Source: Terriglobales bacterium (lineage in GTDB: Bacteria > Acidobacteriota > Terriglobia > Terriglobales > Acidobacteriaceae). From it: a stretch of 64,000 bases of DNA. Below, one piece after another: positions 31,944 through 60,231 of this stretch (position 1 is the stretch's first letter; each line of letters opens with the position of its first letter). Where the stretch lies: positions 2,820-66,819 of the forward strand of contig DATFZT010000205.1 in NCBI GenBank assembly GCA_035314185.1, in the 5' to 3' direction. The notes beneath the pieces are model-generated. The model searched no databases and was not told the DNA's origin. It worked only from the letters and a program-made list of their open reading frames with translations. A program made the position numbers and the translations under genes.

Positions 31944-32780
31944 ATGAACACCGTCCGCATCGCCGCCCTCCTCGAACCATTCCTCGAGCAATCGCTCGTG
32001 CTATCTCAACTCGATCAAATATCGACGTACATCGATTTATTACTCCGCTGGAACGCCCGCATCAACCTGACCGCCATCCGCAAAGAAGAAGAAATAGTAA
32101 CCCGCCACTTCGGCGAGTCCTTCTTCCTGGCAAGCCATCTCTTCCCCAAAGAATGTGTGGCGCGGACACTCTTATCCGCGAACGCCGACAGCGCCCAACC
32201 GCTGGAAGATTCACAACTATTAAGCCCTTGTCATCCTGAGCGCAGCCGAGCCGAGAGCGAAGCGATTGGCTCGGCGGAGTCGAAGGACCCCTACCCTTAC
32301 TCCGTGCCCGCGCCGCCGCAGGGAATTCTCCCCGCACCCTCGAATTTTCTGAGCGTCCTCGACATCGGCTCCGGTGCCGGATTCCCCGCCCTGCCCCTGA
32401 AGATCTGGGCACCGCACCTCCATCTCACGCTGATCGAATCGAATCACAAGAAGGCTGCCTTCCTCCGCGAAGTGACCCGTGCACTTACATTGACCGACGT
32501 CAATGTAATCACCGACCGAGCCGAAATTCTAGCCGCCCGCCCGGAGCGTCCCCAAGCCGACGTAGTAACCCTCCGAGCCGTTGAGCACTTCGACGCCATC
32601 CTCCCCCAAGCCGTCACCTTCCTGGCCCCCAAGGCAAGCCTAGCCCTGCTGATAAGCACCACCCAGCTCCCACAAGTGACTACCCTGACCGATGTAAGTT
32701 GGCACGCCCCATTGACTATCCCGCAGTCACGTTCAAGGGTATTACTGGTTGGATACAGGACCGCTGTAGGAACTACATAG
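31944..32780 (+). CDS. rsmG: 16S rRNA (guanine527-N7)-methyltransferase
   Basis: LLLRWNARINLTAIRKEEEIVTRHFGES and SAM motif DIGSGAGFPALPL. It carries a roughly 60-aa insertion containing a REP element (see finding). Confidence 0.8.
   Translation: MNTVRIAALLEPFLEQSLVLSQLDQISTYIDLLLRWNARINLTAIRKEEEIVTRHFGESFFLASHLFPKECVARTLLSANADSAQPLEDSQLLSPCHPERSRAESEAIGSAESKDPYPYSVPAPPQGILPAPSNFLSVLDIGSGAGFPALPLKIWAPHLHLTLIESNHKKAAFLREVTRALTLTDVNVITDRAEILAARPERPQADVVTLRAVEHFDAILPQAVTFLAPKASLALLISTTQLPQVTTLTDVSWHAPLTIPQSRSRVLLVGYRTAVGTT
32229..32295. repeat. REP-like element, family E, inside rsmG
   Basis: gtcatcctgagcgcagccgagccgagagcgaagcgattggctcggcggagtcgaaggacccctac with stem gccgagcc/ggctcggc. The intergenic twin is at 26859-26934. 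Confidence 0.85.
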
Positions 32781-32888
32781 CAGATTTTACCGCAAATAGT
32801 GGTGGACTGCGCCACTTTTGCAGCCATAATATGGTCAGAAGTGGTACATTTATTCATTAATCTCACTATGAGATAGGATCGGGATTTG

Positions 32889-32906
32889 GTGTTCCACGTG
32901 GAACAC
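32889..32906. promoter_or_regulatory. parS-like site 1 (perfect 18-bp palindrome)
   Basis: gTGTTCCACGTGGAACAc; compare the Firmicute/general parS consensus TGTTNCACGTGAAACA. Confidence 0.75.
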
Positions 32907-32961
32907 TTCTCAGTTTTCACAAGGCAACTGGAATGCGAATCCGCCACGGGACGGCCCGATA

Positions 32962-32977
32962 TGTTCCACCCGAAACA
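32962..32977. promoter_or_regulatory. parS-like site 2 (degenerate)
   Basis: TGTTCCACCCGAAACA shares both outer half-site arms with the parS consensus. Confidence 0.55.
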
Positions 32978-33019
32978 TATTCTCCCCTGAAACGCCGAAG
33001 TAGTTGCCGGCGAGCCAAG

Positions 33020-33035
33020 TGTTCCATGTGAAACA
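33020..33035. promoter_or_regulatory. parS-like site 3
   Basis: TGTTCCATGTGAAACA, with 14 of the 15 specified positions of TGTTNCACGTGAAACA, about 85 nt upstream of the parA start. Confidence 0.75.
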
Positions 33036-33120
33036 CTGGATCGTGTTTTGCACAGCAATCGGCATTGATTTCGTGGATGCGTTCGCATATTCTGACCCGC
33101 AACACCAAGAAAACAAAATC

Positions 33121-33915
33121 ATGGGACGTGTCATCGCAGTTGCTAACCAGAAGGGTGGCGTCGGCAAGACTACGACCGCCATCAACCTCGCCGCCTCACT
33201 TGCCGCCGCCGAAGTCAACACGCTGCTGGTGGACTGCGATCCACAGTCGAACTCCACCAGCGGCTTGGGCCTAGTGAAGAGTCCGGAGCGCATCAGCATC
33301 TACGACGTGATCATGGGCGTGGCTTCGGCTGAAGAGGCATTGCAGCTCACCGAACTCGAACAGCTGTGGCTGATTCCATCGCACAAGAACTTGATTGGCG
33401 CGAACCTTGAGCTGGTGGCGGCGGAGCGACGCGAGTATCGTCTGCGCGATGCGCTGGCCAGTTTGCTTGATCGCTTTCAGTTCATCGTGCTGGACTGTCC
33501 TCCAGCGCTTGATCTGCTGACGCTGAACGCGCTGGTCGCCGCGGATGGAGTCTTGATTCCGATGCAGGCGGAGTACTTTGCGCTGGAGGGTGTGTCGGAG
33601 TTGCTCGACACCATCGAGAGAATACGCGGCGAGCTCAATCCTCGGCTGGTGGTTGAGGGCGTGGTGATCACGATGTTCGATGAGCGGACGAACCTGGCGC
33701 AACAGGTGGCCGAGGAGTTGAAGAAGTATTTTGGAGACAAGCTGTGTACGACTACGATCCCGCGGAACATACGGCTGGCGGAGGCTCCGAGCCATGGGCA
33801 GCCGGCGCTGGTGTATGACGTGCGCTCGCGCGGAGCGGAGAGCTACATACGGCTGGCGAAGGAGATCCTGGACCGGCAGGCGGGGATGGCGAGCGGGTCC
33901 GGGGAGGCAGCTTAG
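33121..33915 (+). CDS. parA: Chromosome partitioning ATPase ParA/Soj
   Basis: [24 protein letters not shown] (deviant Walker A). I chose ATG 33121; the upstream part of the track ORF (from 33004) crosses the parS sites. Confidence 0.95.
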
Positions 33916-34037
33916 ATTGATGGACATAAATATTTATGTTAATCGATATAAGTTTGCTCCCGAGAACAACGTCTTAACCACAGGGGGCACAGGGGAACAC
34001 AGGGGCGAACATTTCTTTTGGAGAGGGGAACTGGTTG

Positions 34038-35177
34038 ATGACTACATCGAATGCGGCGATGGTGGATAAGACGATCGCGAAGGCCAGCGAGAAACTGGCG
34101 GAGAAGCGGCGGGCTTTGGGGCGCGGGCTGGAGTCTCTTTTGCCGGGGCCGCGGGTGGTGAATATTCCAGTGGCTCCCGCGGTTCCGCAAGGTACGCGGA
34201 CGGATGGGGCGGCCGATTCTTCGTTGTTTTCATCTCCTTCTTCCTCGACTTCTTCTCTTTCTGCCTCTTCTGCCGAATTCGCTGGTGGACGGCCGGGGGC
34301 GGCCGTCGCTACGCGAGAGCCTGTGGTTCCGGGGACTTTGGATGTTTTGCAGGCGGTGGCTTCGGGGCAGACTGCGGATGGGGAGACGGTGTTTCATCTG
34401 GCGATGGATCAGATTGACCACAATCCGCACCAGACTCGGAGGGAATTCGATCAGGGCGCTCTTCAGGAACTGGCAGACTCGATCGCGGCGCAGGGGGTGG
34501 TGCAGCCGATTGTGGTGCGTCCGGGGAAAGAGGGCCGGTTCACACTGATTCTGGGCGAGCGGCGGATGCGCGCCTCGGAGAGGTTGGGGAACGCGACGAT
34601 CCCGGCAATAGTGAAGCGGGTCTCGGAGCAGCAGGCGGCGGAGATGACGCTGGTCGAGAACCTGCAGCGTGAGGACCTGAATTGCATGGAGCAGGCGGAG
34701 GCGTTCTCGAACCTGAGCACGGAGTTCAAGCTTACGCAGGAGCAAATTGGTGCGCGGGCGGGCGTGTCGCGGGAAAAGGTGTCGAATTTCATGCGGCTAC
34801 TATCGTTGCCGGAAGGCGTGATCGGAGCGCTGCAGAAGGGCAGGTTGACGTACAGCCACGCGCGGGTGCTGTTGACGCTGAAGGATAACGTCCGGATATG
34901 GAAGTACGCGCAAAAAGCGATGGAAGAAAAGATGTCGGTGGCGAAGCTGGAGGATCTGGTGTTGAGACTGAGCGCACCGGTCGGGCTGGGCGACCCAAAT
35001 AAGGGGGGCGGGGCGCGGTGGGTGGATCCAAATGTGAAGGCGGCGCAGCGGTCGCTGGAGGAAGTGTTGGGGATGCGGGTGCGGATCCGGGATCGGAAGG
35101 GACGAGGCAAGATTGTGATTGAGTATGGGACGATCGACGATTTTGAGCGGGTGGTCAGGATGTTGAAGGGGAGGTAG
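34038..35177 (+). CDS. parB: Chromosome partitioning protein ParB/Spo0J
   Basis: RRALGRGLESLLP, IDHNPHQTRREFDQGALQELADSIAAQGVVQPIVVR and LILGERRMRAS (ParB boxes), followed by an HTH. It has a long Ser-rich linker that contains a REP hairpin. Confidence 0.9.
   Translation: MTTSNAAMVDKTIAKASEKLAEKRRALGRGLESLLPGPRVVNIPVAPAVPQGTRTDGAADSSLFSSPSSSTSSLSASSAEFAGGRPGAAVATREPVVPGTLDVLQAVASGQTADGETVFHLAMDQIDHNPHQTRREFDQGALQELADSIAAQGVVQPIVVRPGKEGRFTLILGERRMRASERLGNATIPAIVKRVSEQQAAEMTLVENLQREDLNCMEQAEAFSNLSTEFKLTQEQIGARAGVSREKVSNFMRLLSLPEGVIGALQKGRLTYSHARVLLTLKDNVRIWKYAQKAMEEKMSVAKLEDLVLRLSAPVGLGDPNKGGGARWVDPNVKAAQRSLEEVLGMRVRIRDRKGRGKIVIEYGTIDDFERVVRMLKGR
34287..34316. repeat. REP family-A hairpin (reverse orientation) inside parB
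   Basis: ggacggccgggggcggccgtcgctacgcga is the reverse complement of tagggacggccgcccccggccgtcc (22610-22634) with 2 mismatches. Confidence 0.75.
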
Positions 35178-42112: not shown

Positions 42113-42451
42113 TCAAGCATATGATTCGACCGCGGCGTCGTCGTTATCGAAGACTTCGAACAAGTTGAGAACGCCCACCAAGCGCAGGGTTTGGATGGCG
42201 AACTTCGAAGGCTGAACGAGCTTGAGATTCCCCCCACGCTGTTTGGTGGATGCCAGAATGCGCATGACCAGACCGATGGCGCTGGAATCGATCATCGGTA
42301 CCTCGGCGAGATTCAGCACCAGGCGCGTGTCTCCGTTGCGCAGCGCTTCTTCCATGGTTTGGCGCAAACCGTCCACCGCCGGGCCCATGCGCAGGGGCCC
42401 ACGAAGCTGGATCAGTTGTACGGGCCCGCGTTTACGGACATTGATGTCCAC
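42113..42451 (-). CDS. STAS-domain anti-sigma-factor antagonist (SpoIIAA-like)
   Basis: LVLNLAEVPMIDSSAIGLVMRIL with the conserved phosphorylatable Ser context. I chose GTG 42451, preceded by AGGAG; the track start is 42541. Confidence 0.8.
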   Translation of the reverse strand: MDINVRKRGPVQLIQLRGPLRMGPAVDGLRQTMEEALRNGDTRLVLNLAEVPMIDSSAIGLVMRILASTKQRGGNLKLVQPSKFAIQTLRLVGVLNLFEVFDNDDAAVESYA

Positions 42452-42674
42452 ACTTTTCTCCTCGCGTCGCCTGGCAGGGCAATCTGTGGGGGATGTTTCC
42501 AGGACGCGGGTTAGGTTACGGAAAGGAAGCGCATTTTGCAAGCGCGGAGCCCGCCACGGGACGCGCGTCCGACCCCCGCCTTCCTGCTGGGGAAATGCGG
42601 GGACGGTCGGGGGGGGGCACGCAAGTTGAAAAATTCATCCCCAAAGATCGAAAAATTTGCCATAATCATTCACC

Positions 42675-44099
42675 GTGGGAGGGCCCATGCGCAGCGCCGC
42701 CGTCCGAAGTCAGCCTTTGCGATACAGCGTTTTTATCGTCACCACCGATGAACGGGTCAGTCCGGAGGCGGAAACCTTTTTGGCATCCGACTACGACTTA
42801 CGACTCTTCCAGACCTGGGAAGAGCTCATCGGGGCGCTCAAGAAGCAGCCTCCGCAAGCCATACTGCTGGACATCGACACGATCGCGGAGAACACCCATG
42901 ATGGTATTGCCGCGCTGGCCGAGCTGCGCTCGATAGAACCCGACCTGGTGCTGGTGGCTCTGACGCGTTCGAATAGCCGCAGCATTCGCCATAAGGCAAT
43001 CAACGCCACGGTGGACGAGTACTTTGTCGCGCCCATCGACTTCCAGGAAGTACACGTCGTCCTGACCCGGGCGCTGGAGAAGCGGACGGCAGAGATCGAG
43101 TACCGGGCGGAACAGGATAAGGAGGCGGAGCGGCAGTCGTTCCACGAACTGGTCGGCGCCAGTGAGGCCATACGCCTGGTGTATGAGGCAATTACGAAGG
43201 TTGCGCACAGCAACAGCACGGTGCTGCTCCGCGGGGAGAGCGGCACCGGCAAGGAACTTGTGGCCCGGGCGATTGTTGCGGTGGGGCCACGCTCGGAGAA
43301 GCCTTTTATCAGTATCAATTGCGCCGCCCTGCCCGAAAACCTCATCGAGACCGAACTATTCGGGCATGAAAAGGGAGCTTTCACCGATGCTCAAACGGCT
43401 CGGGCGGGGCACATCGAGCTGGCACACACGGGCACGCTTTTTCTGGACGAGATCGGCACCCTCGGTCTGGCGCTGCAGGCCAAGCTGTTGCGGGTGCTGG
43501 AAGACCGGGCAGTGACACGGATTGGGGGCAAGACTCCGAAAAAGATCGACTTTCGGCTTATCACCGCCACCAATGACAATCTGGAAGAATTGGTGCATGC
43601 GGGCCGGTTCCGGGAGGATCTCTATTACCGCATCAACGTGATCCCGATTGCGTTGCCTCCGTTACGCGAGAGGGCGGGAGACATTCCGCTCCTTATCAAT
43701 CACTTCCTGCGACTTTATTCCGAGATTAACCACGTGCCCGCGAAGCAGATGGAGCCCGAGGTGGTCGAGATCCTGGAGGAGTATGCCTGGCCCGGCAATA
43801 TCCGGGAACTGGAGAACCTCGTGCAGCGACTGGTGCTGATGGTGGACGGCCCGGTCATAAGGGCGCAGCACCTGCCGCAGCACATCCTGATGACCACAGC
43901 CACCAGCCAGGAAGCGCTGCTCATTCCTGAAGAGGGCGTAAATTTCGAGGAAGAGATGGCGCGCATCGAGGCGGCGTATGTGCGTGCGGCGCTGCGGCGT
44001 TCGGACGGCAGCAAGGTAGGAGCCGCGCGGCTGCTGCACATCGACAAGCAGAAGATGCACTACCTGTGCCGGAAATACCAGATCGGCAGAGAGGAGTAG
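42675..44099 (+). CDS. Sigma54-dependent transcriptional activator (NtrC/Fis family; REC-AAA+-HTH)
   Basis: Walker A GESGTGKE, sigma54-contact loop GAFTDA, Walker B TLFLDEIG, RFREDLYYRIN, and a C-terminal HTH AARLLHIDKQKMHYLCRKY. Confidence 0.9.
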   Translation: MGGPMRSAAVRSQPLRYSVFIVTTDERVSPEAETFLASDYDLRLFQTWEELIGALKKQPPQAILLDIDTIAENTHDGIAALAELRSIEPDLVLVALTRSNSRSIRHKAINATVDEYFVAPIDFQEVHVVLTRALEKRTAEIEYRAEQDKEAERQSFHELVGASEAIRLVYEAITKVAHSNSTVLLRGESGTGKELVARAIVAVGPRSEKPFISINCAALPENLIETELFGHEKGAFTDAQTARAGHIELAHTGTLFLDEIGTLGLALQAKLLRVLEDRAVTRIGGKTPKKIDFRLITATNDNLEELVHAGRFREDLYYRINVIPIALPPLRERAGDIPLLINHFLRLYSEINHVPAKQMEPEVVEILEEYAWPGNIRELENLVQRLVLMVDGPVIRAQHLPQHILMTTATSQEALLIPEEGVNFEEEMARIEAAYVRAALRRSDGSKVGAARLLHIDKQKMHYLCRKYQIGREE

Positions 44100-44267
44100 A
44101 CCGACGCCAAGATCAAGAGAAAGATTAAGAATTCATGTGTGAGCGGATGAGTTTTTAATCTCTTTGTCGGCGAGTGCTTTCCCAACCGCGAGTAATTCGC
44201 TCGAACCAGAGCCGCAACACTATGAAAAGCCAGCATTTTTGCCTCGTCGCGGAGCGGGCGGCGAGTT

Positions 44268-44283
44268 TGGCACAGGCCGTGCT
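44268..44283 (+). promoter_or_regulatory. Putative sigma54 (-24/-12) promoter
   Basis: TGGCACaggccgTGCT has GG (44269-70) and GC (44281-82) at the exact consensus spacing (TGGCAC-N5-TTGCW). It is 169 nt after the activator stop and 86 nt before ATG 44369. Confidence 0.6.
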
Positions 44284-44368
44284 CTTAGTGATGGCACGTG
44301 GGGCCGAACCCAGGGGAAGTAAAAATTCAGGAGTATCCGCCGCTAAGGCGAGAAAAGGGATCACTACC

Positions 44369-44533
44369 ATGTCAATCCAGAAAAAGTCGTTGATCGGCAG
44401 CCGACCGGCGGAAGCGAAGGCCACAGCGCAACCAGTAAAGGGGACCCTCGGCGAGGCGAAGGCTATCACCGCCACATCGCTGCGCAGGAAGTCTGCGAGA
44501 GGTTTGTCCTTCAGGGCCGCAAAGAAGAAATAG
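44369..44533 (+). CDS. Small cationic peptide, paralogue 1 (54 aa)
   Basis: MSIQKKSLIGSRPAEAKATAQPVKGTLGEAKAITATSLRRKSARGLSFRAAKKK. ATG chosen because the paralogue at 44634 shares the MSIQKKSLI N-terminus. AAGGG lies 9 nt upstream. Confidence 0.5.
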   Translation: MSIQKKSLIGSRPAEAKATAQPVKGTLGEAKAITATSLRRKSARGLSFRAAKKK

Positions 44534-44633
44534 GTGTCAGTGAGGCTACGAGCTTGTCGTAGCTTCTGCAATTATCAAGATCATTCAGAGCGTTCAAATT
44601 TCCAACACGGAACACCAAGAAAGGGTGGCAAGC

Positions 44634-44831
44634 ATGTCGATCCAGAAGAAGTCGTTGATCAGCAACCGAGTTGCGGTAAGAAAGGCCTTGATCGCGAGCC
44701 AGCCAGCCGAAGAAGGCGGCGAGCTGAAAGCAAACTCGCTCACGGCACAGTCCATGAAGAGCAAGAGGGTACTTGCCCACAAGGCGTTCAGAGTCGCTGC
44801 GTTTAAAGTTTCGGCTATGAAGAGAAAGTAA
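44634..44831 (+). CDS. Small cationic peptide, paralogue 2 (65 aa)
   Basis: MSIQKKSLISNRVAVRKALIASQPAEEGGELKANSLTAQSMKSKRVLAHKAFRVAAFKVSAMKRK. AAGGG lies 8 nt upstream. Preceded by the hairpin gctacga/tcgtagc (44545-44563). Confidence 0.5.
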   Translation: MSIQKKSLISNRVAVRKALIASQPAEEGGELKANSLTAQSMKSKRVLAHKAFRVAAFKVSAMKRK

Positions 44832-44906
44832 GACCAAGCAAAATTCGGGCAAGGTGGACGAGGCTGCGACGAACCGCAGCCTCGTCTCATTTCGACCCAG
44901 TCTCGT

Positions 44907-47048
44907 TCACCAGATCTTGCGATCGACAAAATCGCGTATCTGCTTTCCGGCCAGGCCGGCCAGAGTTCGGTGCGCGATCAGGATCTTGGCAGTTCCTGAC
45001 GTTCCGGCCCGAAGCTGGCCGTCGGCGTTCGGCACCAGCGCCGTGACGCCGTAGAAATCCATGCCCGTCAGTCCCTTGTAGCCTTCGACAGGAGCCAGCC
45101 CAGGTTCCATTCCCGACGCTGAAGGCGCAACTTCAAGTACGCGCGAGTGCAGCCGCTCGAATGAGGAATCCATCTTCAGGGAGACACGGTCTCCGGCGCG
45201 TACATCCCGCAAATCGAATTCCGGAAGGTAAATCCGCGCGCGCAGAACGCTCACGTCCGCCACTTCGAGCAACAGGGCGCCGGCCTCGACATAAGAGCCG
45301 GCCAGATCGGGGAGGCGGGGAGTGAGCACAACTCCAGAGATGGGGCTGGTGGGTTGCAAAGCAGACAACTGCGACGCCAACTCGGCGGATTGGCGGCGAA
45401 GCGACTCGCGCTGCTGCTCCGCGCGACTGTAATCGGCATAGTGCAACCGCGCCTCCGCCGCCCGCAGGGAAGCGACCTGCAATTCGGAGTTGACCAGTGC
45501 CGCTCGTCCTTCTAAATCGAGGTTGCGCAGGCGAACCAGGGGCGCTCCGGCTGCGACGAACTGCGCCTCGGTGGGGAACACCGATACGACTTCTCCGGGC
45601 ACAGTGGCGTGAACGGCGGCTGTGCGCATGGGTTCAAGGTTGAATCGCCCCGTGCGAGTTTCCGGCCAGATGGGAGTGAACAGGAGCAACGCCACCAGTG
45701 CTCCCACGAATGCGGCGCGGGGTGTGAGCAGCCAGCGTCGGGCGCGCTCTTTTTTGTCGAGGTAAAAGGTTTTCATGAATCTCACCAATGTGCGGATCCG
45801 CGACTTGAAAATCAGCAGGGCCAGCAGCCCGGCCGGAACGAACGCCCATTCGGGCGAATATTTCCGGAACACGTTGTAGGAGAAGGTGACCACCACGTAG
45901 AGCAGGGTATAGCTGTAGATGCCCGAAATAATGGCATAGACGGAGAACAGCCAGCGGCGCCGGCGCGGCACGAATTCCACTTCGACGGGAAGACCGAAGA
46001 CATGCCTCTTGATCCAGGTGGAGACGAAGGCGGTAGAGTCCTCCTTTAGCCCGATTATGCCGACGAGTTCACAGAGGATGTAATAGCCGTCCAGTTTGAT
46101 GAGCGGGTTGAGATTGATGATGGCGACGCCTACTCCGGTGATGAGAATGATTTTGTAGGCGAGATCATGCACGGGAGTGCCGGCGGGCGTTCCCCACCAA
46201 ATGATCGAGGCGGCGGAGCAGAACATCAATTCCACCCAGATCCCGGCGATGGAAGTGGCGATGCGCGCCCACTTCCCGGCGTAAATGTAGACCTCCGTCA
46301 CGTCCACGAAAAAACATGGTTCGAGATAGTAGAGGAGGAAGCCCATCTTGTGGACGGCTCCGCCGAAGTGCTTGCAAGTAAGGCCATGCGCGGATTCGTG
46401 GAAGAAGCCGAGAAAGCAGAACAGGAGCCAGAACTCGGCGATGTCGCCCAGTCCCTTTTGAGTAAAGTTGTAATACTTCCAGGTGTCGGCGCCGATCTCG
46501 CTCCAGCGGTCGATGAAGATCCAGGCCATGAAGGCGAAGAAAGCCAGCGTCAGCAGGATGAACCAGCCGTCGTAAACGAACTTGGCCTTTTCGTGCAGGC
46601 GGGTCAGGTAGGTGTCTGGATCCCAGTGGCCCACGGTTATGGTGGTGATGTCCTCCCATTTCTTGGTGGCGCGTTTATGGCGCTCCTCGGCGCCTTTCTG
46701 GGCGGCCATGACGTTGGGTTCCTGCGGCGCGGTGTACCAGATTTCATCGAGCTCGCTGACGTATTCCTGAATACTCTCGGGGGAGTAATAGACTCCGGCG
46801 CGCGCCCTGAAGGTATTCGACACTTCTTCGTAGGAGCGCTCTCCGTTGAAGAGCTGCAGCAACTCCCATTGTTGGGGGGTAAAGCGGTACAACTGGTTTG
46901 CGCCCGAAACGATGGCGTAGATCACTGGTTCGCCGCTCTCCATTTGTGTTCGGGCCAACACATGAGGATGGAGCCGGGGACAGCGTTTACGGACCGAGCG
47001 GGGCGGCAGGTCCGGCAGGGCAACGTGAAGGGCTTCGGTGAGATTCAT
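44907..47048 (-). CDS. Site-2-protease-type (M50) zinc metalloprotease fused to a HlyD-like membrane-fusion domain
   Basis: FFHESAHG (HExxH) and NLNPLIKLDGYY (NxxPxxxxDG) within a polytopic region. C-terminal barrel-sandwich/coiled-coil (PGEVVSVFPTEAQFVAAGAPLVRLRN...). I chose ATG 47048, which forms an ATGA overlap with the upstream stop; the track start is 47120. Confidence 0.8.
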   Translation of the reverse strand: MNLTEALHVALPDLPPRSVRKRCPRLHPHVLARTQMESGEPVIYAIVSGANQLYRFTPQQWELLQLFNGERSYEEVSNTFRARAGVYYSPESIQEYVSELDEIWYTAPQEPNVMAAQKGAEERHKRATKKWEDITTITVGHWDPDTYLTRLHEKAKFVYDGWFILLTLAFFAFMAWIFIDRWSEIGADTWKYYNFTQKGLGDIAEFWLLFCFLGFFHESAHGLTCKHFGGAVHKMGFLLYYLEPCFFVDVTEVYIYAGKWARIATSIAGIWVELMFCSAASIIWWGTPAGTPVHDLAYKIILITGVGVAIINLNPLIKLDGYYILCELVGIIGLKEDSTAFVSTWIKRHVFGLPVEVEFVPRRRRWLFSVYAIISGIYSYTLLYVVVTFSYNVFRKYSPEWAFVPAGLLALLIFKSRIRTLVRFMKTFYLDKKERARRWLLTPRAAFVGALVALLLFTPIWPETRTGRFNLEPMRTAAVHATVPGEVVSVFPTEAQFVAAGAPLVRLRNLDLEGRAALVNSELQVASLRAAEARLHYADYSRAEQQRESLRRQSAELASQLSALQPTSPISGVVLTPRLPDLAGSYVEAGALLLEVADVSVLRARIYLPEFDLRDVRAGDRVSLKMDSSFERLHSRVLEVAPSASGMEPGLAPVEGYKGLTGMDFYGVTALVPNADGQLRAGTSGTAKILIAHRTLAGLAGKQIRDFVDRKIW

Positions 47049-50597: not shown

Positions 50598-52058
50598 TTA
50601 CTTTCCGATGCAGAATGTGCCGAAGATGAGGTTGAGGATGTCGTCGGTGGTGGTGGCGCCGGTAATTTCGTCGAGGGGGCGCAGGGCGGCGTAGAGATCG
50701 AGCAGGAGCATCTCGTGGGGGACTCGGGCAGCTACGGCACTGGTGGCGGCGGCGAGCGCGGTTAGCGCGTCGCTGACTAGTTTCTGGTGGCGAACGCTGG
50801 TCAGGAAGCCGGATTCCTGCTGGGCGGTGGAGTCTCCGGCCGCGTGGTGGAGAATGGCGGCACGGAGGGCGGGGATGCCTTCGCCGGTGAGGGCGGAGGT
50901 GGGGATTACGGGCGTCGTCGGCGTTGCCGAGCTGCTCCACCCCGTCAACCCAACACCGGGCTTGTCGGGGACCCCGGTGCGCTCGGCTGGACGGGCGAGG
51001 CGCCCGTCCCCACACGTGCCGTCTCCACGCTCGGCCAGCAGGTCGCATTTGTTTTCTACTACTATCGCTGGGCGGGCTTCGATCTGGCGCAGTACTTCTT
51101 GGTCTTCTTCGTTCAGGGGCTGAGTTTTATCGATTACCACGAGGACTAGGTCGGCATCGGCCAAGGCTTCCATTGATTTCTTGATGCCGATACTTTCGGC
51201 TTCGGCGTCGTTTGGGGCGCGACGGATGCCGGCGGTGTCCACCAGTTCCACAGGAATTCCACCGATGGAGACGGTTTCGCTTACCAGGTCGCGCGTGGTG
51301 CCGGGCTCGGCGGTGACGATGGCGCGCTCACGCTCGACGAGGCGATTGAAGAGGCTCGATTTGCCTACGTTCGGACGACCTACGATGGCCAGGGTCAGTC
51401 CCTGGTGAACGAGCTTGCCGTAGGTGAAAGAGGCGGCTAGTTGTTGCAGTGGCGCTTCGATCTTCGCTATGCGATCAAGGATGGTGGCGTCTTGCGCTAT
51501 GGAAACGTCGTCTTCGGCGAAGTCGATGCCGGCTTCGAGCAGGGCGATCAGGTCCACTAAATCTTTCTTGATGGGCTTCAGGCGATTGGACAGCGCTCCT
51601 TCTAATTGCTGGGCGGCCACTTTCGCCTGGAATAGAGTTTGCGCGTCGATGAGGTCGCGGACGGCTTCGGCCTGGGTCAGGTCGAGGCGTCCGTTGAGGA
51701 AGGCGCGCATGGTGAATTCTCCGGGCTCGGCTAGACGGGCCCCGCGGGCTAGGGCTAGCTCGACAATGTGGCGCAGGACTACGGGGGAGCCGTGGGCGGA
51801 GATTTCTATGATGTCGTCGGTGGTGTAGGAGTGGGGCTTGGCGAAGTAGGTGACTATGACTTCGTCGATGCGGGTGGGAGGTGTGGTGGAGGGGTCGATC
51901 AGGTCGCAGTGGAGTGCTCGGTTGGGTTCGAGGTCGCGACTTAGGCGCAGCATGGGCTGGGCTATTGCTCGCGCTCCAGGACCGGCCAGGCGGACTACGC
52001 CTATGCCACCGCGTCCGGGCGGGGTGGCGATGGCGACTATGGTGTCATCGAGATTCAC
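50598..52058 (-). CDS. mnmE: tRNA modification GTPase MnmE
   Basis: [23 protein letters not shown]1 [10 protein letters not shown]3 DTAG, G4 NKCD, and C-terminal FCIGK. 486 aa, with an extra loop encoded by a REP element. Confidence 0.95.
50976..51036. repeat. REP family-B element inside mnmE
   Basis: ggtgcgctcggctggacgggcgaggcgcccgtccccacacgtgccgtctccacgctcggcc, the same element as 39739-39802, 56197-56248, 61315-61346 and 62464-62515. Confidence 0.85.
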
Positions 52059-52067
52059 ACGAACATT

Positions 52068-52523
52068 CTAGCTGTGTGACACTGTGTTCACGCTAGACGT
52101 CTGTTCGGCGCTGCGCGTCCACTTCCGATAAACAACGAAGTGGTAGAGGGCGAGAGGAAGGGGAATAAGAAAGAAAAGAAACGGGAACCAGAGGGCACGC
52201 TTCAGCCATGACGATTGGTCGAAGCCGAACCAAAAGTACAGCATCGCCACCCATAGCAACGCGCTCCCAATAACCTCCGGAATAAGGACCAACCGCAAGA
52301 TGGCGGCGGTTGACGGCGGCAAGGTGTGGGATCCAATGGCGGATTGAGCGGCACGCGTTCCGGCCAAGGTTCCACTTAACGCCAGAGCCAGCACGGAGCA
52401 AATGAGATACACACGTCGCGCGACGCGGGAAACCATCCACGTCCGTGAGATGGGCAGGATCATCATCGGGACGGAGCAGCTTATCACGTGATAAACCGGT
52501 TTGCTGCATCTGGTCCGGGTCAT
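52068..52523 (-). CDS. Hypothetical membrane protein upstream of mnmE
   Basis: 151-aa ORF with 3-4 hydrophobic segments (e.g. [40 protein letters not shown]). It ends 9 nt before the mnmE start. Confidence 0.45.
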
Positions 52524-52579
52524 TTATACTTACGGTTTGCCTTAAGCCATCTGATTCAATCAGGGAGCAAGGATTTTCG

Positions 52580-52735
52580 ATGCCGAAACGTACATTTCAA
52601 CCCAACAAGCGCAAGCGCTCGAAGAAGCACGGGTTCCGGACTCGCATGAAGACCAAGAGCGGGGCCGCAGTGCTGTCGCGCCGCCGGGCCAAGGGGCGCA
52701 AGCGTGTTTCCGTGGCGCCGGGTTTCCGCGATTAG
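52580..52735 (+). CDS. rpmH: 50S ribosomal protein L34
   Basis: [47 protein letters not shown] 52580 follows GGGAGCAAGGA; the track ORF starts earlier (52445). Confidence 0.95.
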
Positions 52736-52809
52736 TTTTCCCCACAACGGACGGCAAAGGCCGTCTTAATTACTATTACTATTACTAACTGTCGTTACTA
52801 CCAACTATT

Positions 52810-53310
52810 GTGCAGGATTGTGAGCTGGTGAGCGCCGACGCTCCGGAACGGAGTCGAGAGCACACCGCGGCCAACGCGGGCGGGAGCTTTCCGCGTGGCT
52901 CTTCGCGTTTGGGGCGGCTGCTGAAGCACTCCGATTTCAATCGCGTGTACAAGGAGGGGCGGCGGCACTTTTCCTCGCACATGACCGTGTTTTTTCTGCG
53001 GCGGGCGGATGCAGACTTGCCGCAGACTGCTTTGCCGGAAAGCGCCTTACCGGAGAAGCTTGCGCGCGTCGGGTTCACCGTGGGACGCGTGCTCGGCAGC
53101 GCAGTCGAGCGGAACCGGATCAAGCGGCGCTTGCGCGAAGCGGTGCGGCAGCGGCGTCTGGTGCTGAAGGACGCGGGGGCGGTGGATGTGGTGATCAATC
53201 CGAAGAAATCGGTGCTGACTCTGGAATTTTCGGAGGTGCTCGAAGAAGTGGGCCGGGCGCTGGACGTGATCGCGAAAAAGCTGTTGGGGAATGGAGAAAC
53301 GAAGAAATGA
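52810..53310 (+). CDS. rnpA: Ribonuclease P protein component
   Basis: [17 protein letters not shown]...[27 protein letters not shown] (RNR motif). The start is uncertain because the N-terminal 30 aa are not conserved-looking. Confidence 0.8.
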
Positions 53311-53570
53311 AGTCTCTGACGCTGGCGCTGCTGCTAGTTTACAAGCGGTGGATTTCGCCTTTGTTTCCACCGTCGTGCCGCTACGTGCCGACTTGCTCGG
53401 AATACGCCTTGGAGGCGGTCGAGCGATATGGTGCGATGCGCGGCGGGGCTTTGGCGGCTTGGCGGGTGTTGCGGTGCCATCCGTTGGCTGCGGGCGGGCT
53501 GGATCCGGTGGTGGCGAATCCCACTCATTCGCACAAAACGCGAATGAGTGGGGCACCCACGATGTTGTGA
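53307..53570 (+). CDS. yidD: Membrane protein insertion efficiency factor YidD
   Basis: [52 protein letters not shown] overlap with the rnpA stop. The last ~18 aa are translated from a REP hairpin. Confidence 0.9.
53519..53558. repeat. REP-like hairpin, family F, forming the yidD 3' end
   Basis: cccactcattcgcacaaaacgcgaatgagtggggcaccc with stem ccactcattcgc/gcgaatgagtgg. Twin at 23701-23742. Confidence 0.8.
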
Positions 53571-53649
53571 TGCACTGCCGAGCTTCGCTCGGGGCGGACG
53601 AATGCGCGCTACGTGGACTGTGGTGCTGACGAAGAGATGAGTTACTGAT

Positions 53650-55476
53650 TTGGCTGAATTTAATAATCCTCAACAAGAACCCGGGATGGAGCGCAGGCTG
53701 CTGGTGGTGTTTGCGCTTACGTTTCTGGTCATCATGCTGTTCCAGCCACTTTTGAAGAAGTATGGGCCGCAGCCTCCGGCGAAGACGGAGAGTGAGAACG
53801 CTGCCGGGCTTCGCCCGGCCGTACAGCCGGGGGCGGCTGTCGCTACGCAGAATCCGGCGCAGATCTTGGCGCAACGTAAGCAGGCCGATCTCCCTCCGGG
53901 CATAAAGGTGATACGCGATTCGAGCCCGGTGCAGGCGACGAGCGAGCGCGAGACAGTGGTTGAAAATGACGTGTATCGAATCGTTTTCACCAATCGCGGC
54001 GCACGGGTGAAGTCGTGGGTGCTGAAGAAGTACACCGACGATAAAGGCGGACAGCTTGAATTGGTAAATGCAACGGCGGCGGAGAAGTATGGATATCCGC
54101 TGACGTTGTGGACGTATGACGAGGCGCTGCGAGACAAGGTGAACTCGGCGCTGTACGTGGGGTCGCACTTCGCAACCAGGACCGATACCGCCGGCGCCTC
54201 TCCCCTCGGTGCCAGCTACACCGCTCCCACGGAAGTCGTCTTCGGATATTCCGACGCCGATCTCTCGGTGCGGAAGACCTACACGTTCGACGCCAGCACC
54301 TATGTGGTTGGGGTGAAGACGGCAGTCACTCAGAAGGGTGCGCAGGTCGCGGCGTTTCCGATGTGGCCTGCGGGGTTCGGCGCGGACATGACCGGGCCGC
54401 AATACGCGTCTGGGCAGATCGTTTATCAGTACGACGACAAGGTTGAGCGGCTGGCGATCAAGAAGATCAGCGGCGGCGGGACGCTGCAGGGACCGTTCCA
54501 CTGGGCAGGATTGTCGGACCAGTATTTCGCGGCAGTGTTCTTGCCGGCGGATCCAAAGAACGCGGCGATGGTGACGCTGCGGAATGCGATTGAAATTCCG
54601 CATGGCGGGTCCGATACGAAGCAGATGGACAAGGTGGACGTGCTGGGCGCGGCGGTGGGGAACGAGAGGGGCGCGAGCGATGTCCGAGTGTATGTGGGTC
54701 CTAAGGCGCTGGCGGATTTGGAATCGGTTTCGGTGCCGGGGATTACGGGCGCGGAACCGGACTTGCGGGCGATCATCGACTTTGGCTGGCTGGGAATCAT
54801 CGCGCGGCCGCTTTTTTTGTGGTTGAAGTGGATGTACAGCCACATCGTCCGTAATTGGGGCTGGGCGATTCTGCTGCAGACGCTGGTCATCAACCTGGCG
54901 CTGCTGCCGCTGCGGCTTTCGCAGATGAAGTCGATGCTGAAGATGCAGCGGGTGGCGCCGCAGATCAAGGCGATCCAGGAAAAGTACAAGAAATACAGTT
55001 TGCGTGATCCGCGCAAAGCGGAAATGAACACGGAAATTTCGGCGCTGTACAAAAAGGAAGGCGTGAATCCGGCGGGTGGATGTCTGCCGCTGGTGATCCA
55101 GATGCCGTTTCTGTTTGCGTACTACCGGATGCTGAACGTGGCGATGGATCTGCGGCACGCGCCGTGGCTATGGATTCATGATCTCTCGGCGCCCGATCCG
55201 TGGCACATTCTGCCGGTTGCGATCATCATCACCATGCTTGTGATGCAGCGGATGACGCCGCAGGCGGGCATGGATCCGGCGCAACAGAAGATGATGAACG
55301 TCATGATGCCGGGGATGCTGGGCATCATGAGCTGGAACTTGCCGGCGGGGTTGGGCTTGTACTGGTCCGCGGGTCAGCTGATCGGGATCGTACAGCAGTC
55401 GGTGATGAATCGCACGTCGCTGGGGCGCGAGATGCGCGAGATGATGGAGAAGCGGGCGCGGAAGAAAGAGAGATAG
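53650..55476 (+). CDS. yidC: Membrane protein insertase YidC
   Basis: 608 aa with an N-terminal TM segment and a large periplasmic domain. Conserved core GWAILLQTLVINLALLPL, MQRVAPQIKAIQEKYK, NPAGGCLPLVIQMPFLFAYY and WNLPAGLGLYW. Confidence 0.95.
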   Translation: MAEFNNPQQEPGMERRLLVVFALTFLVIMLFQPLLKKYGPQPPAKTESENAAGLRPAVQPGAAVATQNPAQILAQRKQADLPPGIKVIRDSSPVQATSERETVVENDVYRIVFTNRGARVKSWVLKKYTDDKGGQLELVNATAAEKYGYPLTLWTYDEALRDKVNSALYVGSHFATRTDTAGASPLGASYTAPTEVVFGYSDADLSVRKTYTFDASTYVVGVKTAVTQKGAQVAAFPMWPAGFGADMTGPQYASGQIVYQYDDKVERLAIKKISGGGTLQGPFHWAGLSDQYFAAVFLPADPKNAAMVTLRNAIEIPHGGSDTKQMDKVDVLGAAVGNERGASDVRVYVGPKALADLESVSVPGITGAEPDLRAIIDFGWLGIIARPLFLWLKWMYSHIVRNWGWAILLQTLVINLALLPLRLSQMKSMLKMQRVAPQIKAIQEKYKKYSLRDPRKAEMNTEISALYKKEGVNPAGGCLPLVIQMPFLFAYYRMLNVAMDLRHAPWLWIHDLSAPDPWHILPVAIIITMLVMQRMTPQAGMDPAQQKMMNVMMPGMLGIMSWNLPAGLGLYWSAGQLIGIVQQSVMNRTSLGREMREMMEKRARKKER

Positions 55477-55487
55477 CTGTCGGCTAT

Positions 55488-55630
55488 CAGCTATCAGCTG
55501 TCAGTTTAATCCAGTCCCTAAAGGGGCGTTTGATTTTCGAGGAATTTACGGTATCGCTAAAGCGATACCCTGATACGAACCTTTCGTCGTTTGCGACGCT
55601 CTTAGCATTTACTGAGAGCTGATAGCTGAG
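55488..55630. repeat. Structured spacer bounded by 17-nt inverted repeats (MITE- or ncRNA-like)
   Basis: cagctatcagctgtcag (55488-55504) versus ctgagagctgatagctg (55612-55628), with 1 mismatch. Internal hairpins include ggtatcgct-aa-agcgatacc (55550-55569) and cgtcg-tttg-cgacg. Confidence 0.6.
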
Positions 55631-55640
55631 AACTTTACTT

Positions 55641-56183
55641 ATGCCGATCACTGACAAGGTTGTTGCCGCTAAACAGATTGGGGAATTTTTGCAGGCCGTC
55701 ATTTCCAATGGCGGCTTCAAGCTGAAGTATCGGATCACGGTGGATCCTCCGATCGCGCAGAATCGCGAGTGGGAGCATCCGGAAATTCTGGTGGAGTTTG
55801 CGGGGCCGGATTCGGCGCTGTTGCTGGAACGCAGTGGAGAGTTGCTGCGTTCGTTCGAGCTGCTGGCGTCGGAGATTCTGCACCTGCAAGGCAACGAGCA
55901 CGAGAAGATCTGGTTCGACTGCAAGAACTTCCGGGCGATGCGGATCGACGAGTTGCAACTGGCGGCGCGGGTGGCGGCGGAGCAGGTGCGGCGGACGAGC
56001 GAGCCTTACCGGTTCGGGCCGATGTCGTCGCGGGAGCGGCGGATTGTGCATCTGGCGTTGCGCGAGGAAAAAGATTTGCGCACGGAGAGTGACGGCGAGG
56101 GCGGACGACGGTCGGTGGTGGTGTATCCGGCGAGTTATAAGTCGGCGGCTCCGGCGCGGCGGGAACGGCGGACGATTTCGTAG
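55641..56183 (+). CDS. jag: KH/R3H RNA-binding protein Jag (KhpB-like)
   Basis: KH-like VEFAGPDSALLLERSGELLRSFELLA and R3H MSSRERRIVHLALREEKDLRTESDGEGGRRSVVVYP. Typical position after yidC. Confidence 0.8.
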   Translation: MPITDKVVAAKQIGEFLQAVISNGGFKLKYRITVDPPIAQNREWEHPEILVEFAGPDSALLLERSGELLRSFELLASEILHLQGNEHEKIWFDCKNFRAMRIDELQLAARVAAEQVRRTSEPYRFGPMSSRERRIVHLALREEKDLRTESDGEGGRRSVVVYPASYKSAAPARRERRTIS

Positions 56184-56196
56184 TGGCCGAATTTCG

Positions 56197-56248
56197 CAGG
56201 CCGAGCTGCGCTCGGCTGGACGGGCGAGGTCGCCCGTCGCCACACGAC
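56197..56248. repeat. REP-like hairpin element, family B
   Basis: gcaggccgagctgcgctcggctggacgggcgaggtcgcccgtcgccacacgac, 3' of jag and upstream of dnaA. Confidence 0.85.
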
Positions 56249-56527
56249 TTTTCTTCCATTGCACAGTTTGCGCGGCAGTTAGTTTCTCGACACTTGACAG
56301 CGGAAACAAATCGCGGTTGGATAAAGCGCTCGCGCGGAATTTTTTTGTTGCAACCCACCGACGCGGCGATTTTTTTGTGCTAGTATGCGGTTCGTCTCGT
56401 AATAAATTTCACAGGCAACCCGTACTGCAAAACAGACTCTGCTCTGCAGGAAACGACGAACTCACAATTTCAAGATTGGTCTTTCCCGGACGTTTTTGCG
56501 CCGGCGCTTTCGATATTCTGATAAACA

Positions 56528-57955
56528 ATGTCTCTCACCAGTTCCGCCATTATTCCGAATCCGTGGGTGCGCATCCTTGACGCGCTGGAAAAGAAAGTCA
56601 ACCGACACTCCTACGACACCTGGTTGAAGCCGACACGGTACAGCCACGCCAGCAATGGAATTTTGTACGTGCGCATTCCGACCGCTGAGTTCCGCCACGT
56701 AAGCGACAAGTACGCAGACCTGATTCAGGAAGCGGTGGACAACCTTGGGCTGGGATACGAGGATGTCAAATTCGTTACCGCCGAGGACGATCCTTCGAAC
56801 ACGCCGATCCGGCATAACGGCGGGCTGTCGGCTCATAGTTCGAACATTGGCTCGAGCGGCGGTCCCAATGCTGGTCCGGGTCAACAGACAACGCAGGGGT
56901 TGCATCCGGCGCAGGGACGGTTCGACTGGGACAGTGCGGCGCAACTGAATCCTCGCTACACGTTTGACGCGTTCGTGATCGGCAGCGGCAACCAGTTCGC
57001 GCACGCGGCTTGCCAGGCGGTGGCGGAGCGTCCCTCGAAGGCCTACAACCCGCTGTTCCTGTACGGGGGCGTGGGCATGGGCAAGACGCATCTGATGCAG
57101 GCGATCGGACATGAGATCAAGCGGCGGACGCCGCAGGCGGCAATCTGTTACGTGTCGAGCGAGAAGTTCACCAACGAGATGATCAACTCGTTGCGCTACG
57201 ACAAGATGATCAGCTTCCGGGATAAATTCCGGACCATGGATGTGCTGCTGATTGACGACATTCAGTTCCTGGCGCAGAAAGAGCGGACACAGGAAGAATT
57301 CTTCCACACGTTTAATGCGCTGCACGAATCGATGAAGCAGATCGTAATCGCGAGCGATCGACCGCCGAAAGAGTTGGCGGAATTCGAGGATCGCTTGCGC
57401 AGCCGGTTTGAGTGGGGACTGATTGCCGACATTCAGCCGCCGGACCTGGAGACGAAAGTCGCCATCCTGCAAAAAAAGGCGGAGCAGGAACGGGTCACGT
57501 TGCCGACGGATGTGGCGTTATTTATCGCAACGAATATTCGTTCGAACGTTCGGGAGTTGGAAGGTGCGCTGATCCGGCTGGTGGCGCATTCTTCGCTGAT
57601 CGGGGCTGAGATCACGCTGCCCTACACCCAGCAGGTGCTGAAGAATTTTATCGATTCGCAAGCACGCAAAGTGACTATTGAATCCATTCAGAAAGCGGTA
57701 GCTGAGCAATTCGGGCTGCGCCTGGTGGAGATCAAGGCGAAAAATAATTCGCGATCGATTGTGTATCCGCGGCAGATTGCCATGTACCTAGCCAAGCATC
57801 TCACGGAAGCTTCCCTGCCTGAAATTGGACGCCAGTTCGGGGGTAAGCACCACACTACGGTCTTGCATTCCGTGGACAAGATTGAAGAGGTTCGCAAGAA
57901 CGACAAGGATTTGAACAGATTGCTCAATAAACTGACCGAGCAATTAGGCTCGTAA
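56528..57955 (+). CDS. dnaA: Chromosomal replication initiator protein DnaA
   Basis: YTFDAFVIGSGNQFAHAA, Walker A LYGGVGMGKTHL, DVLLIDDIQFL, and domain IV RSIVYPRQIAMYLAKHLT...GGKHHTTVLHS. Confidence 0.97.
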   Translation: MSLTSSAIIPNPWVRILDALEKKVNRHSYDTWLKPTRYSHASNGILYVRIPTAEFRHVSDKYADLIQEAVDNLGLGYEDVKFVTAEDDPSNTPIRHNGGLSAHSSNIGSSGGPNAGPGQQTTQGLHPAQGRFDWDSAAQLNPRYTFDAFVIGSGNQFAHAACQAVAERPSKAYNPLFLYGGVGMGKTHLMQAIGHEIKRRTPQAAICYVSSEKFTNEMINSLRYDKMISFRDKFRTMDVLLIDDIQFLAQKERTQEEFFHTFNALHESMKQIVIASDRPPKELAEFEDRLRSRFEWGLIADIQPPDLETKVAILQKKAEQERVTLPTDVALFIATNIRSNVRELEGALIRLVAHSSLIGAEITLPYTQQVLKNFIDSQARKVTIESIQKAVAEQFGLRLVEIKAKNNSRSIVYPRQIAMYLAKHLTEASLPEIGRQFGGKHHTTVLHSVDKIEEVRKNDKDLNRLLNKLTEQLGS

Positions 57956-58251
57956 CTGGTAGTTTCCACCGGCTTTTCCACTCTTCAGGCCATTCTTCCT
58001 GCCGTCTGGCTGTGAACTGTTTGTGGAAGCTGTGCGAGACGGGACGGAAACTTGAGAATGAGCCGAGGGTTACGATGGCCTCCGCCGGAGCCGGGAGCGA
58101 TTGTTCACATGAAGGGTTGATGTGGAAGCAATTGAGCCGCAGGGGCCTGGACCGGTTTTCCACTTCTCCGAGCCACCTACGGTTACTACTGGTTTTCTTG
58201 TATTTGCATTTGATATAAGAAGAGAACAGAAGTAGAGTCGGGAGACCCAAT
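57956..58251. other. Candidate oriC segment (DnaA-box-like cluster plus AT-rich element)
   Basis: gTTTCCACc 57962-70, TTTTCCACt 57974-82, TGTGGAAgc 58022-30, TTGTTCACA 58101-09, TGTGGAAgc 58121-29, TTTTCCACt 58156-64. AT-rich stretch 58193-58224. Confidence 0.55.
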
Positions 58252-59421: not shown

Positions 59422-59447
59422 GGCTTTTGGTAGGCGGAGGAAATGTA

Positions 59448-59864: not shown

Positions 59865-59873
59865 ACCGCGCTG

Positions 59874-59940
59874 AGGTGCGCTCGGCTGGACCCTTCGACT
59901 TCGCTCAGGGCAGGCTCCGAGGGCGGCCGTCCCTACGTAA
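59874..59940. repeat. Composite REP element (B left arm, FDFAQGRL-type core, reverse family A)
   Basis: gaggtgcgctcggctggacccttcgacttcgctcagggcaggctccgagggcggccgtccctacgtaa, 3' of mscL. Confidence 0.75.
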
Positions 59941-60034
59941 ACCCTCTTCCGCCTTGGCGAAAATCGCTGGATTCCTGTAAAATTTAAGCTTCTGCAAACG
60001 GTTTCGGCTACAGGCCTGGAAGGACTCCTAAGTT

Positions 60035-60223: not shown

Positions 60224-60231
60224 CTTTCTAG

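Follow-up and report, generated by a model that had tools for sequence, protein, structure and literature searches.

Acidobacteria are among the most abundant and least tractable of soil phyla. The daptide enzyme MpaP has a RiPP recognition element (RRE; RiPP, ribosomally made, post-translationally modified peptide) fused N-terminally to an intramembrane site-2 protease and has been termed an "RRE-dependent intramembrane peptidase" (bioRxiv 10.1101/2023.03.08.531785). A locus that recalls this arrangement occurs in a 64-kb stretch of Terriglobales DNA, which is referred to here as the window. Two small cationic peptide genes, pepA and pepB, lie behind a predicted sigma-54 promoter and converge on genes for an RRE-like-M50-HlyD fusion protein, a short HlyD adaptor and a GAF-HlyD adaptor. 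The locus resembles daptide systems (MpaA1-3, MpaP) in its tandem small precursors with a conserved N-terminal leader and in its fusion of a likely RRE to a site-2 protease, and class II bacteriocins and microcins, which are tandem unmodified ribosomal peptides with an N-terminal leader that is removed on export through a peptidase-bearing ABC transporter and its HlyD accessory protein, in its HlyD-family adaptor, hypervariable cores and extra precursor copies. Like the epipeptide system YydF/YydH (LiaK-type M50), it associates an M50 membrane metalloprotease with a small peptide (a weak NF058609 match, E 1.8e-10), and it has the same three-protein core (PqqD/RRE-M50-HlyD, short HlyD, GAF-HlyD) as proteobacterial LEPR-XLL (NF012209) clusters. 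We consider it moderately probable that pepA and pepB are translated, leader-bearing substrates that are processed and exported by the convergent three-gene machine.

The two peptides appear to represent a large and apparently undescribed family of strongly cationic peptides from soil Acidobacteria. A profile made from the pair matches 70 small proteins at E ≤ 0.01; those with a name are labelled "hypothetical" and belong to bins of Terriglobales or Ca. Sulfotelmatobacter. Exhaustive HMMER searching of 1.84 billion cluster representatives gave 194 clusters (50% identity) at E ≤ 0.001, all of them 34-138 aa long and matching from the N-terminus, and a broader profile gave 732 clusters (90% identity). 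Members with a source name come from Terriglobia metagenome bins throughout. No match to the peptides was found in Pfam, NCBIfam, PADLOC or the PDB sequence set, and no published description of the family was found in the literature searched. The defining feature is a leader of 22 residues with the consensus M-S-I-Q-K-K-S-L-I-S-N-R-x-A-[VT]-K-K-A-[LI]-[IV]-A-[SK]. Among 226 fetched members, positions 10-22, which were unconstrained by member selection in this count, contain ~1.3-4.1 bits of information and more than 2 bits except at positions 13 and 19; conservation drops beyond position 22 and is ~1 bit from position 27 on. Sequences beyond the leader are unrelated yet uniformly basic, with a median net charge of +12, and are often built from repeats: at least three tandem units occur in 40 of the 226 members (e.g., KLAKAGGV x5, MDLAKRRT x5, GAKASHI x5, PTLSR x5, KPAFAPA x4 and [KR][VI]ADSR[VM] x7). 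Cysteine is present in just 9 of the 226, and the members show none of the Ser/Thr/Cys patterns by which known RiPP classes are marked. A conserved leader (residues 1-22) followed by a variable core is the layout of a RiPP-type precursor. The original prediction for this DNA had proposed a conserved leader with a shared mid-block and a possible G-E processing junction. The leader is conserved family-wide over residues 1-22; the mid-block is confined to the pepA and pepB subfamilies, and the G-E junction is likewise a subfamily feature that was rejected for the family, conservation being lost after position 22. Several leader-peptide paralogues occur per genome. In one related locus, three leader peptide genes stand in tandem instead of two (L020, 8001-8774), and the sequence of another begins within an extra pepA-like open reading frame (ORF; L015, 1-681).

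Both ORFs are judged to be real genes under purifying selection, based on the substitution pattern among their orthologues. Nonsynonymous to synonymous rate ratios (dN/dS, Nei-Gojobori) are 0.26-0.34 (Table 1); over the first 45 codons, nonsynonymous differences per site (pN) of 0.15-0.30 compare with synonymous differences (pS) of 0.61-0.63, and in the tails pN is 0.51-0.59 versus a pS of 0.68. It is from these ratios and the pN/pS pattern that the reading frames are considered to be conserved. The peptides are 48% identical over 52 residues (BLASTP E 5e-8) and have in common the MSIQKKSLI start, a QP...GE.KA block and basic tails; neither contains cysteine or a hydrophobic segment, and AlphaFold2 predicts for pepB a helix at residues 5-22 alone, with the remainder as coil. 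pepA-type and pepB-type sequences fall into separate subfamilies, with A preceding B without exception, and the pair represents two old subfamilies and is not a local duplication. Most of what had been predicted from the letters of this region was borne out: ORFs of 54 aa and 65 aa open at ATG 44369 and ATG 44634, each has AAGGG ahead of its ATG, the shared start, QP..G..GE.KA block and basic tails are present as described in both peptides, and the proposed synonymous/nonsynonymous comparison, run on orthologues of each subfamily, indicates conserved frames.

Linkage between the peptides and the machine extends well beyond the window. Exact-protein look-ups, together with a pattern scan of GTDB species genomes, yielded 17 distinct loci, and in 14 of them the peptide genes are convergent with those for RRE-M50-HlyD, HlyD and GAF-HlyD (the window, L001, L004, L009, L012, L013, L014, L015, L018, L020, L021, L024, L025 and L026). 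The arrangement is STAS gene, activator gene and peptide gene(s), followed by the three machine genes on the opposite strand, and the genes that flank these 14 loci are unrelated. The other three loci are orphan peptide pairs with the same promoter: one shares its contig with a full module 44 kb away (L007/L023), one is in the same bin as the L015 module (L017) and one is flanked by two IS110 transposase genes (L011). Linkage persists in relatives that have only the leader in common with the window peptides, namely L012, with a protease 52% identical to that of the window, and L024, L025 and L026 (~52%). Machine proteins are 50-98% conserved while the cores are hypervariable. The linkage of leader-only relatives is the strongest argument that leader and machine work together. 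A link to the M50-HlyD operon, which was an inference when first proposed, is now strong, and homologues scored for HlyD/M50 linkage as had been suggested are linked in most loci.

Some loci carry additional genes near the peptides. After pepB in L011 (5949-11445), sequence similar to the protease gene's 3' end is followed by a gene for a CPBP/Rce1-like membrane protease, a family often linked to bacteriocin immunity. A SET-domain protein (NHSCDPN, ELTIDYG) is encoded between the peptide and protease genes in L020 (8859-9359), and a PrmA/MTS-like methyltransferase occupies the same place in L013 (11146-12636). Methyltransferase genes were seen at L013 and L020 only; their presence hints that in some variants lysines of these Lys-rich peptides are methylated.

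The 713-aa machine protein begins with an N-terminal domain in the cytoplasm, crosses the membrane with five to six segments and carries a HlyD domain in the periplasm. Its M50 motifs, HESAH (HExxH) at 217 and NLNPLIKLDG (NxxPxxxLDG) at 312, are both invariant or nearly so in 42 homologues, and together with the multi-pass membrane core they are those of a site-2 protease. In Pfam, the M50 match of the window protein does not reach the gathering score (20.3 vs 27.2), and the NCBIfam profile NF041824 (daptide_HExxH) is matched with E 6e-45 over positions 1-356 of 379, at 154 bits compared to a cut-off of 300. Homologues are named "putative peptide zinc metalloprotease protein" by JGI. The earlier comparison of the peptides and neighbouring protease and adaptor genes with an exported-peptide locus gains from this full-length homology of the M50 protein to RRE-dependent leader peptidases (NF041824 and the daptide preprint). 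Although the longest ORF of the protease gene would encode 737 aa (GTG 47120) and overlap the upstream HlyD gene by 76 nt, the true start is taken to be MNLTEAL at ATG 47048 because nearly all homologues have 713 aa; with this start the two genes overlap by 4 nt (ATGA), as is typical of translational coupling. Modelled with AlphaFold2, residues 1-170 have three strands followed by three helices at 30-99 (pLDDT 78-88). Of the Foldseek matches in the PDB, none of which is significant, those of highest probability are to TbiB1 (with leader peptide), CteB and SkfB, which are RRE proteins. The N-terminal domain is likely an RRE. No tailoring enzyme is encoded among the window module genes. Literature searches on the machine domain combinations and on LEPR-XLL clusters returned nothing relevant and no functional study.

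Sigma-54 promoters have a consensus close to TGGCAC-N5-TTGCW, and transcripts start 11-13 nt after the -12 element. The window sequence TGGCACaggccGTGCT at 44268-44283, of the form TGGCAC-N5-GTGCT, has the -24 GG and -12 GC with N10 spacing. The pattern TGGCAC-N6-TGC has one occurrence in the window versus 0.73 expected by chance; the motif alone is therefore not significant and its weight lies in conservation. GG-N10-GC is retained in 15 of 15 loci that have upstream sequence, with a variable spacer. Just past the activator gene is a palindrome, an inverted repeat with 15-nt arms that are 87% complementary, which is kept in linked and orphan loci; distant modules have a related palindrome instead (GGTTAAAAATTAACC-N8-GGTTAATTTTTAACC). 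In the upstream alignment, the palindrome, the -24/-12 element and the 5' untranslated region (UTR) are conserved and the surrounding sequence drifts. Sigma-54 dependence of the peptide genes is well supported by these sequence features, and orphan pairs are assigned to the same regulon because they carry the same palindrome and promoter. The sigma-54 promoter that had been predicted thus acquires conservation across loci, an adjacent palindrome like an upstream activating sequence (UAS) and a neighbouring activator gene. A sigma-70 promoter scan of the peptide region found none. The sigma-54 gene rpoN was found on the related contig L011 and is not in the window. No sigma-54 element is visible by eye upstream of the GAF-HlyD gene, so the machine operon is probably outside the peptide regulon.

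RNA elements accompany the promoter. No significant structure was found in the 5' UTR (z -0.33), and an Rfam scan of 44050-44950 gave only chance miRNA-like matches on the palindromes. A hairpin with a 7-bp stem had been noticed between the ORFs; it is present, with a longer stem than was described (Table 1). The stem is conserved, the loop is variable and a compensatory variant occurs in L013; this hairpin is probably an attenuator, a processing site or an RNA stabiliser. An intrinsic terminator separates the peptide genes from the protease gene that faces them, and its hairpin is kept 3' of pepB in L004, L014, L017 and L021.

Table 1. Features of the peptide module and its regulatory genes, in window coordinates (nt, nucleotides; TM, transmembrane).
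Feature	Coordinates	Strand	Description and basis
Hybrid histidine kinase, 706 aa	39808..41928	-	GAF-PAS-HisKA-HATPase-receiver (Pfam domains); probable sensory input, accessory part
STAS-domain protein (anti-sigma-antagonist type)	42113..42541	-	Pfam STAS E 3e-14; divergent from activator gene
Sigma-54 enhancer-binding protein (activator)	42675..44099	+	Receiver-like, AAA+ sigma-54 interaction and Fis-type helix-turn-helix domains (Pfam)
Palindrome AGATTAAGAATTCAT-N10-ATGAGTTTTTAATCT	44122..44161		Probable activator binding site (UAS), ~145 nt upstream of -24 element
Sigma-54 -24/-12 element TGGCACaggccgTGCT	44268..44283	+	GG-N10-GC spacing; predicted transcript start ~44294
5' UTR	44294..44368	+	~75 nt; conserved in alignment; ribosome-binding site AAGGGA
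pepA	44369..44533	+	54-aa leader-bearing polycationic peptide, net charge +12; homologues, dN/dS 0.34 (11 orthologues); pepA subfamily always first gene
Inter-peptide hairpin	44540..44569	+	12 pairs, -15.9 kcal/mol, z -3.7; no U tract
pepB	44634..44831	+	65-aa leader-bearing polycationic peptide, net charge +12; homologues, dN/dS 0.26 (15 orthologues)
Intrinsic terminator	44856..44895		GC-rich hairpin 44856-44887 and U-rich tract; -26.4 kcal/mol, z -6.4
RRE/PqqD-like-M50-HlyD fusion, 713 aa	44907..47048	-	RRE-like ~25-100; HlyD ~464-713
Short HlyD/membrane-fusion adaptor, 299 aa	47045..47944	-	RND_mfp E 7.5e-45; N-terminal anchor or signal, hydrophobic 1-26
GAF x3-TM helix-HlyD adaptor, 803 aa	47989..50400	-	Pfam GAF E 2e-33, HlyD_D23 E 1e-19; TM 535-560

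The regulatory genes beside the peptides are conserved to different degrees. The activator gene (Sigma54_activat E 5e-68, AAA_lid_14 and HTH_8 in Pfam) immediately precedes the peptide genes wherever the module is complete. A STAS gene is kept beside the activator gene in L001, L004, L009, L012, L013, L024, L025 and L026, and a kinase of 703 aa equivalent to that of the window adjoins the module in L024 and L025, with none adjacent in L001, L004 and L009. The receiver domain of the activator is atypical by eye, with VFIVTTDE in place of the acidic pocket and YFVAPI at the conserved Lys site, and the sigma-54 contact loop reads GAFTDA, not GAFTGA. Judged from these residues, the activator may escape ordinary phosphorylation control. 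It may also regulate its own gene: TTGAAAAATTCAT at 42626-42639, in the divergent region between the STAS and activator genes, resembles one half of the UAS palindrome. The STAS protein has a phosphorylatable-serine motif (IDSSAIG), and its gene in the window is co-directional with that of the hybrid GAF-PAS kinase. In distant modules (L024, 6195-7000; L025, 382-1186), the partner of the STAS gene is one for an RsbW-like kinase, and the hybrid kinase gene follows that for GAF-HlyD; these STAS and kinase features point to a partner-switching input into the module. The window module sits in an origin-proximal housekeeping region, bounded by rsmG, parA and parB at one end and by mnmE, dnaA, dnaN and ruvB at the other (31944-35177; 50598-62506). 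Elsewhere in the window, a 703-aa ORF on the minus strand at 53047-55158 has no Pfam match at E ≤ 1e-5 and overlaps a 608-aa ORF on the opposite strand.

If the peptides are substrates of the machine, the following sequence of events can be envisaged. A signal, perhaps relayed by the STAS protein and the hybrid kinase, would act on the neighbouring enhancer-binding protein, and the activator would then bind the palindrome and activate sigma-54 RNA polymerase at the -24/-12 element. A single transcript would comprise pepA, the internal hairpin and pepB and would end at the terminator. By analogy with MpaP, the RRE-like cytoplasmic domain of the M50 fusion would bind the 22-residue leader (MSIQKKSLISNRxAxKKALIA), which the site-2 protease would remove, probably near residues 22-26. 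The disordered polycationic remainder would pass into or across the envelope via an assembly of the three HlyD proteins, as the HlyD domains and the proteobacterial homologues described below suggest. Export is proposed mainly because the three-protein core is shared with loci that hold TolC and surface-type cargo. A competitive or surface role is suggested because the cores are hypervariable and repeat-built and because extra orphan pairs occur; the evidence does not favour either a competitive/antimicrobial function or a surface/matrix function in polyanion binding over the other. An antimicrobial model in which the tails form amphipathic helices was rejected (hydrophobic moment ≤0.31), and a classical pore-forming helix is disfavoured because the tails are not clearly amphipathic.

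Several points weigh against processing and export by the machine. The window, the peptide relatives and all of the supporting evidence are metagenome-assembled sequence. A cationic cargo must cross against the membrane potential, and no ABC, RND, MFS or SecA-type energy source and no TolC was found in the module or its variable flanks. The tails are not clearly amphipathic (maximum hydrophobic moment 0.31), and no immunity gene was found at the cluster. Assignment of the RRE is indirect: the best Foldseek E-value of the RRE-like domain is 0.27 and Pfam PqqD matches 2 of 42 subfamily members, weakly. The structural search has no significant match and Pfam PqqD is barely detectable; the RRE is rated likely and not proven. 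pepA, pepB and the L012 peptide also have no NF012209 match even at E ≤ 10.

Other readings of the locus have to be set against this one. The Lys/Ala-rich disordered composition recalls histone-H1-type tails, and this composition, a module without transporter or ATPase and orphan pairs without an adjoining machine would all suit cytoplasmic polycations that are induced through sigma-54 and bind nucleic acid, ribosomes or polyphosphate in a stress response, with the M50 and HlyD proteins forming a distinct, though co-regulated, envelope system or merely degrading them. We regard this as unlikely, since machine linkage holds for members that share only the leader, since a strictly N-terminal conserved leader ahead of a free-running core is what a recognition tag, not a folded binding protein, would look like, and since the protease belongs to a leader-peptidase family. 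That the ORFs are spurious, and that the conserved element is a non-coding RNA or regulatory region, is hardly credible. The ORFs are short and the UTR and intergenic RNA are partly conserved, as such a view would have it, but substitutions are of the coding type, ribosome-binding sites are present, hundreds of protein-level homologues retain the start codon and frame, and Rfam has no match.

Two further alternatives accept translated peptides associated with the machine. Genuine RiPP precursors, with Lys-rich cores modified (e.g., by methylation) by enzymes encoded elsewhere in the genome before cleavage and export, would be in keeping with the RRE-type protease and with the methyltransferase genes of L020 (SET-domain) and L013 (PrmA/MTS-like). 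Tailoring enzymes are missing, however, from the window module and from most of its relatives, and the near absence of cysteine and of known RiPP Ser/Thr/Cys patterns also makes this quite improbable. The sensory-rich composition of the module, with GAF x3-HlyD, STAS, hybrid kinase and an activator with an atypical receiver, could instead mean that the machine itself has the peptides as its signalling or regulatory ligands (autoinducer-like and sensed by the hybrid kinase or GAF domains, or plugs or assembly factors of the HlyD complex), which would then not be effectors. Signals normally co-evolve with their receptor and are conserved within a lineage, whereas here hypervariable cores accompany a conserved machine and several paralogues occur per genome; a ligand role is accordingly given a low probability.

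Processing and export of the peptides by the machine, if true, would have several implications. It would define a leader-marked peptide family with hundreds of clusters in Acidobacteria and would supply RRE-fused site-2 proteases with a concrete cargo and a recognition tag in a cluster that has no tailoring enzymes, outside classical RiPP chemistry. Small-peptide maturation would also be tied, through a common three-protein core, to the unexplained LEPR-XLL giant-protein clusters, and the shared core could be tested with a 22-residue peptide rather than a 10,000-residue protein. Control by sigma-54 and an enhancer-binding protein, including orphan copies with the same UAS, makes a small regulon that is traceable by sequence alone. 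As possible applications, the polycationic cores with their repeats are candidates for antimicrobials or for binders of polyanions.

Relatives of the machine outside Terriglobia place the window system in a wider context. With tblastn against plasmids, full-length homologues of the fusion protein (~25% identical) were found in Alphaproteobacteria as well as on plasmids of E. coli and Citrobacter. The annotation "PqqD family peptide modification chaperone" is attached to several of the proteobacterial homologues, and residues 37-101 of one score above the Pfam PqqD threshold. In five of five proteobacterial loci examined (L027, E. coli plasmid NZ_CP081687; L028, Pseudosulfitobacter; L031, Methylosinus; L032; L033), the fusion homologue gene follows a gene of 6-38 kb for a giant repeat protein. 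Of three giant proteins scanned with NCBIfam, two match NF012209, the N-terminal LEPR-XLL (E 1e-7 to 2e-8), and a GAF-HlyD protein homologous to that of the window (E 3e-24) is present in two of three loci scanned with Pfam. Two of the proteobacterial loci have an annotated TolC, and a SecA-like ATPase occurs at three and DUF3467 at two that are alphaproteobacterial; no ABC transporter is listed at these loci. A likeness of the peptide leader to LEPR-XLL (SLISNR vs ALESR / LEPR) was also considered; it is too short to test, and hmmscan gave no match. It is possible, although we hold this only tentatively, that the trio is a previously unrecognised envelope-spanning secretion and processing system free of ABC transporters, in which a leader bound by an RRE is cut by a site-2 protease, and which would serve, under sigma-54 control, a fast-evolving set of polycationic peptides built from repeats in Terriglobia and, with SecA assistance, LEPR-XLL giants in Proteobacteria.

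Comparison with described systems reveals differences from each of them. The SecA-like ATPase, DUF3467 and TolC of LEPR-XLL clusters are not part of the Terriglobia module (SecA-like ATPase and TolC are absent from the window module and from every Terriglobia locus examined), and no sigma-54 activator is annotated beside LEPR-XLL clusters in the stretches examined. In contrast to daptides, the window peptides lack an invariant C-terminal Thr and end in K, R, S and other residues, and homologues of MpaB (DUF-RRE), MpaC, MpaD and MpaM are absent from the window module. Window cores are polycationic and disordered, whereas daptide cores are hydrophobic helices; the window protease has an extra HlyD domain and its NF041824 score is about half of the family cut-off, and the cluster is under predicted sigma-54 control. 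The epipeptide system differs in its radical-SAM epimerase and YydIJ-type ABC transporter, neither of which is found here, and the epipeptide protease profile is matched with 40.9 bits compared to a cut-off of 225. A bacteriocin or RiPP precursor locus had been among the first suggestions for this region. The bacteriocin reading is not supported: unlike class II bacteriocins and microcins, the window cluster has no double-glycine leader, C39 peptidase, ABC transporter or immunity gene, and its protease is an M50-family metalloprotease. The RiPP reading likewise finds no support in a window cluster without a tailoring enzyme. Judged by the features that define them, the window system is outside the daptide, double-glycine bacteriocin, epipeptide and LEPR-XLL families.

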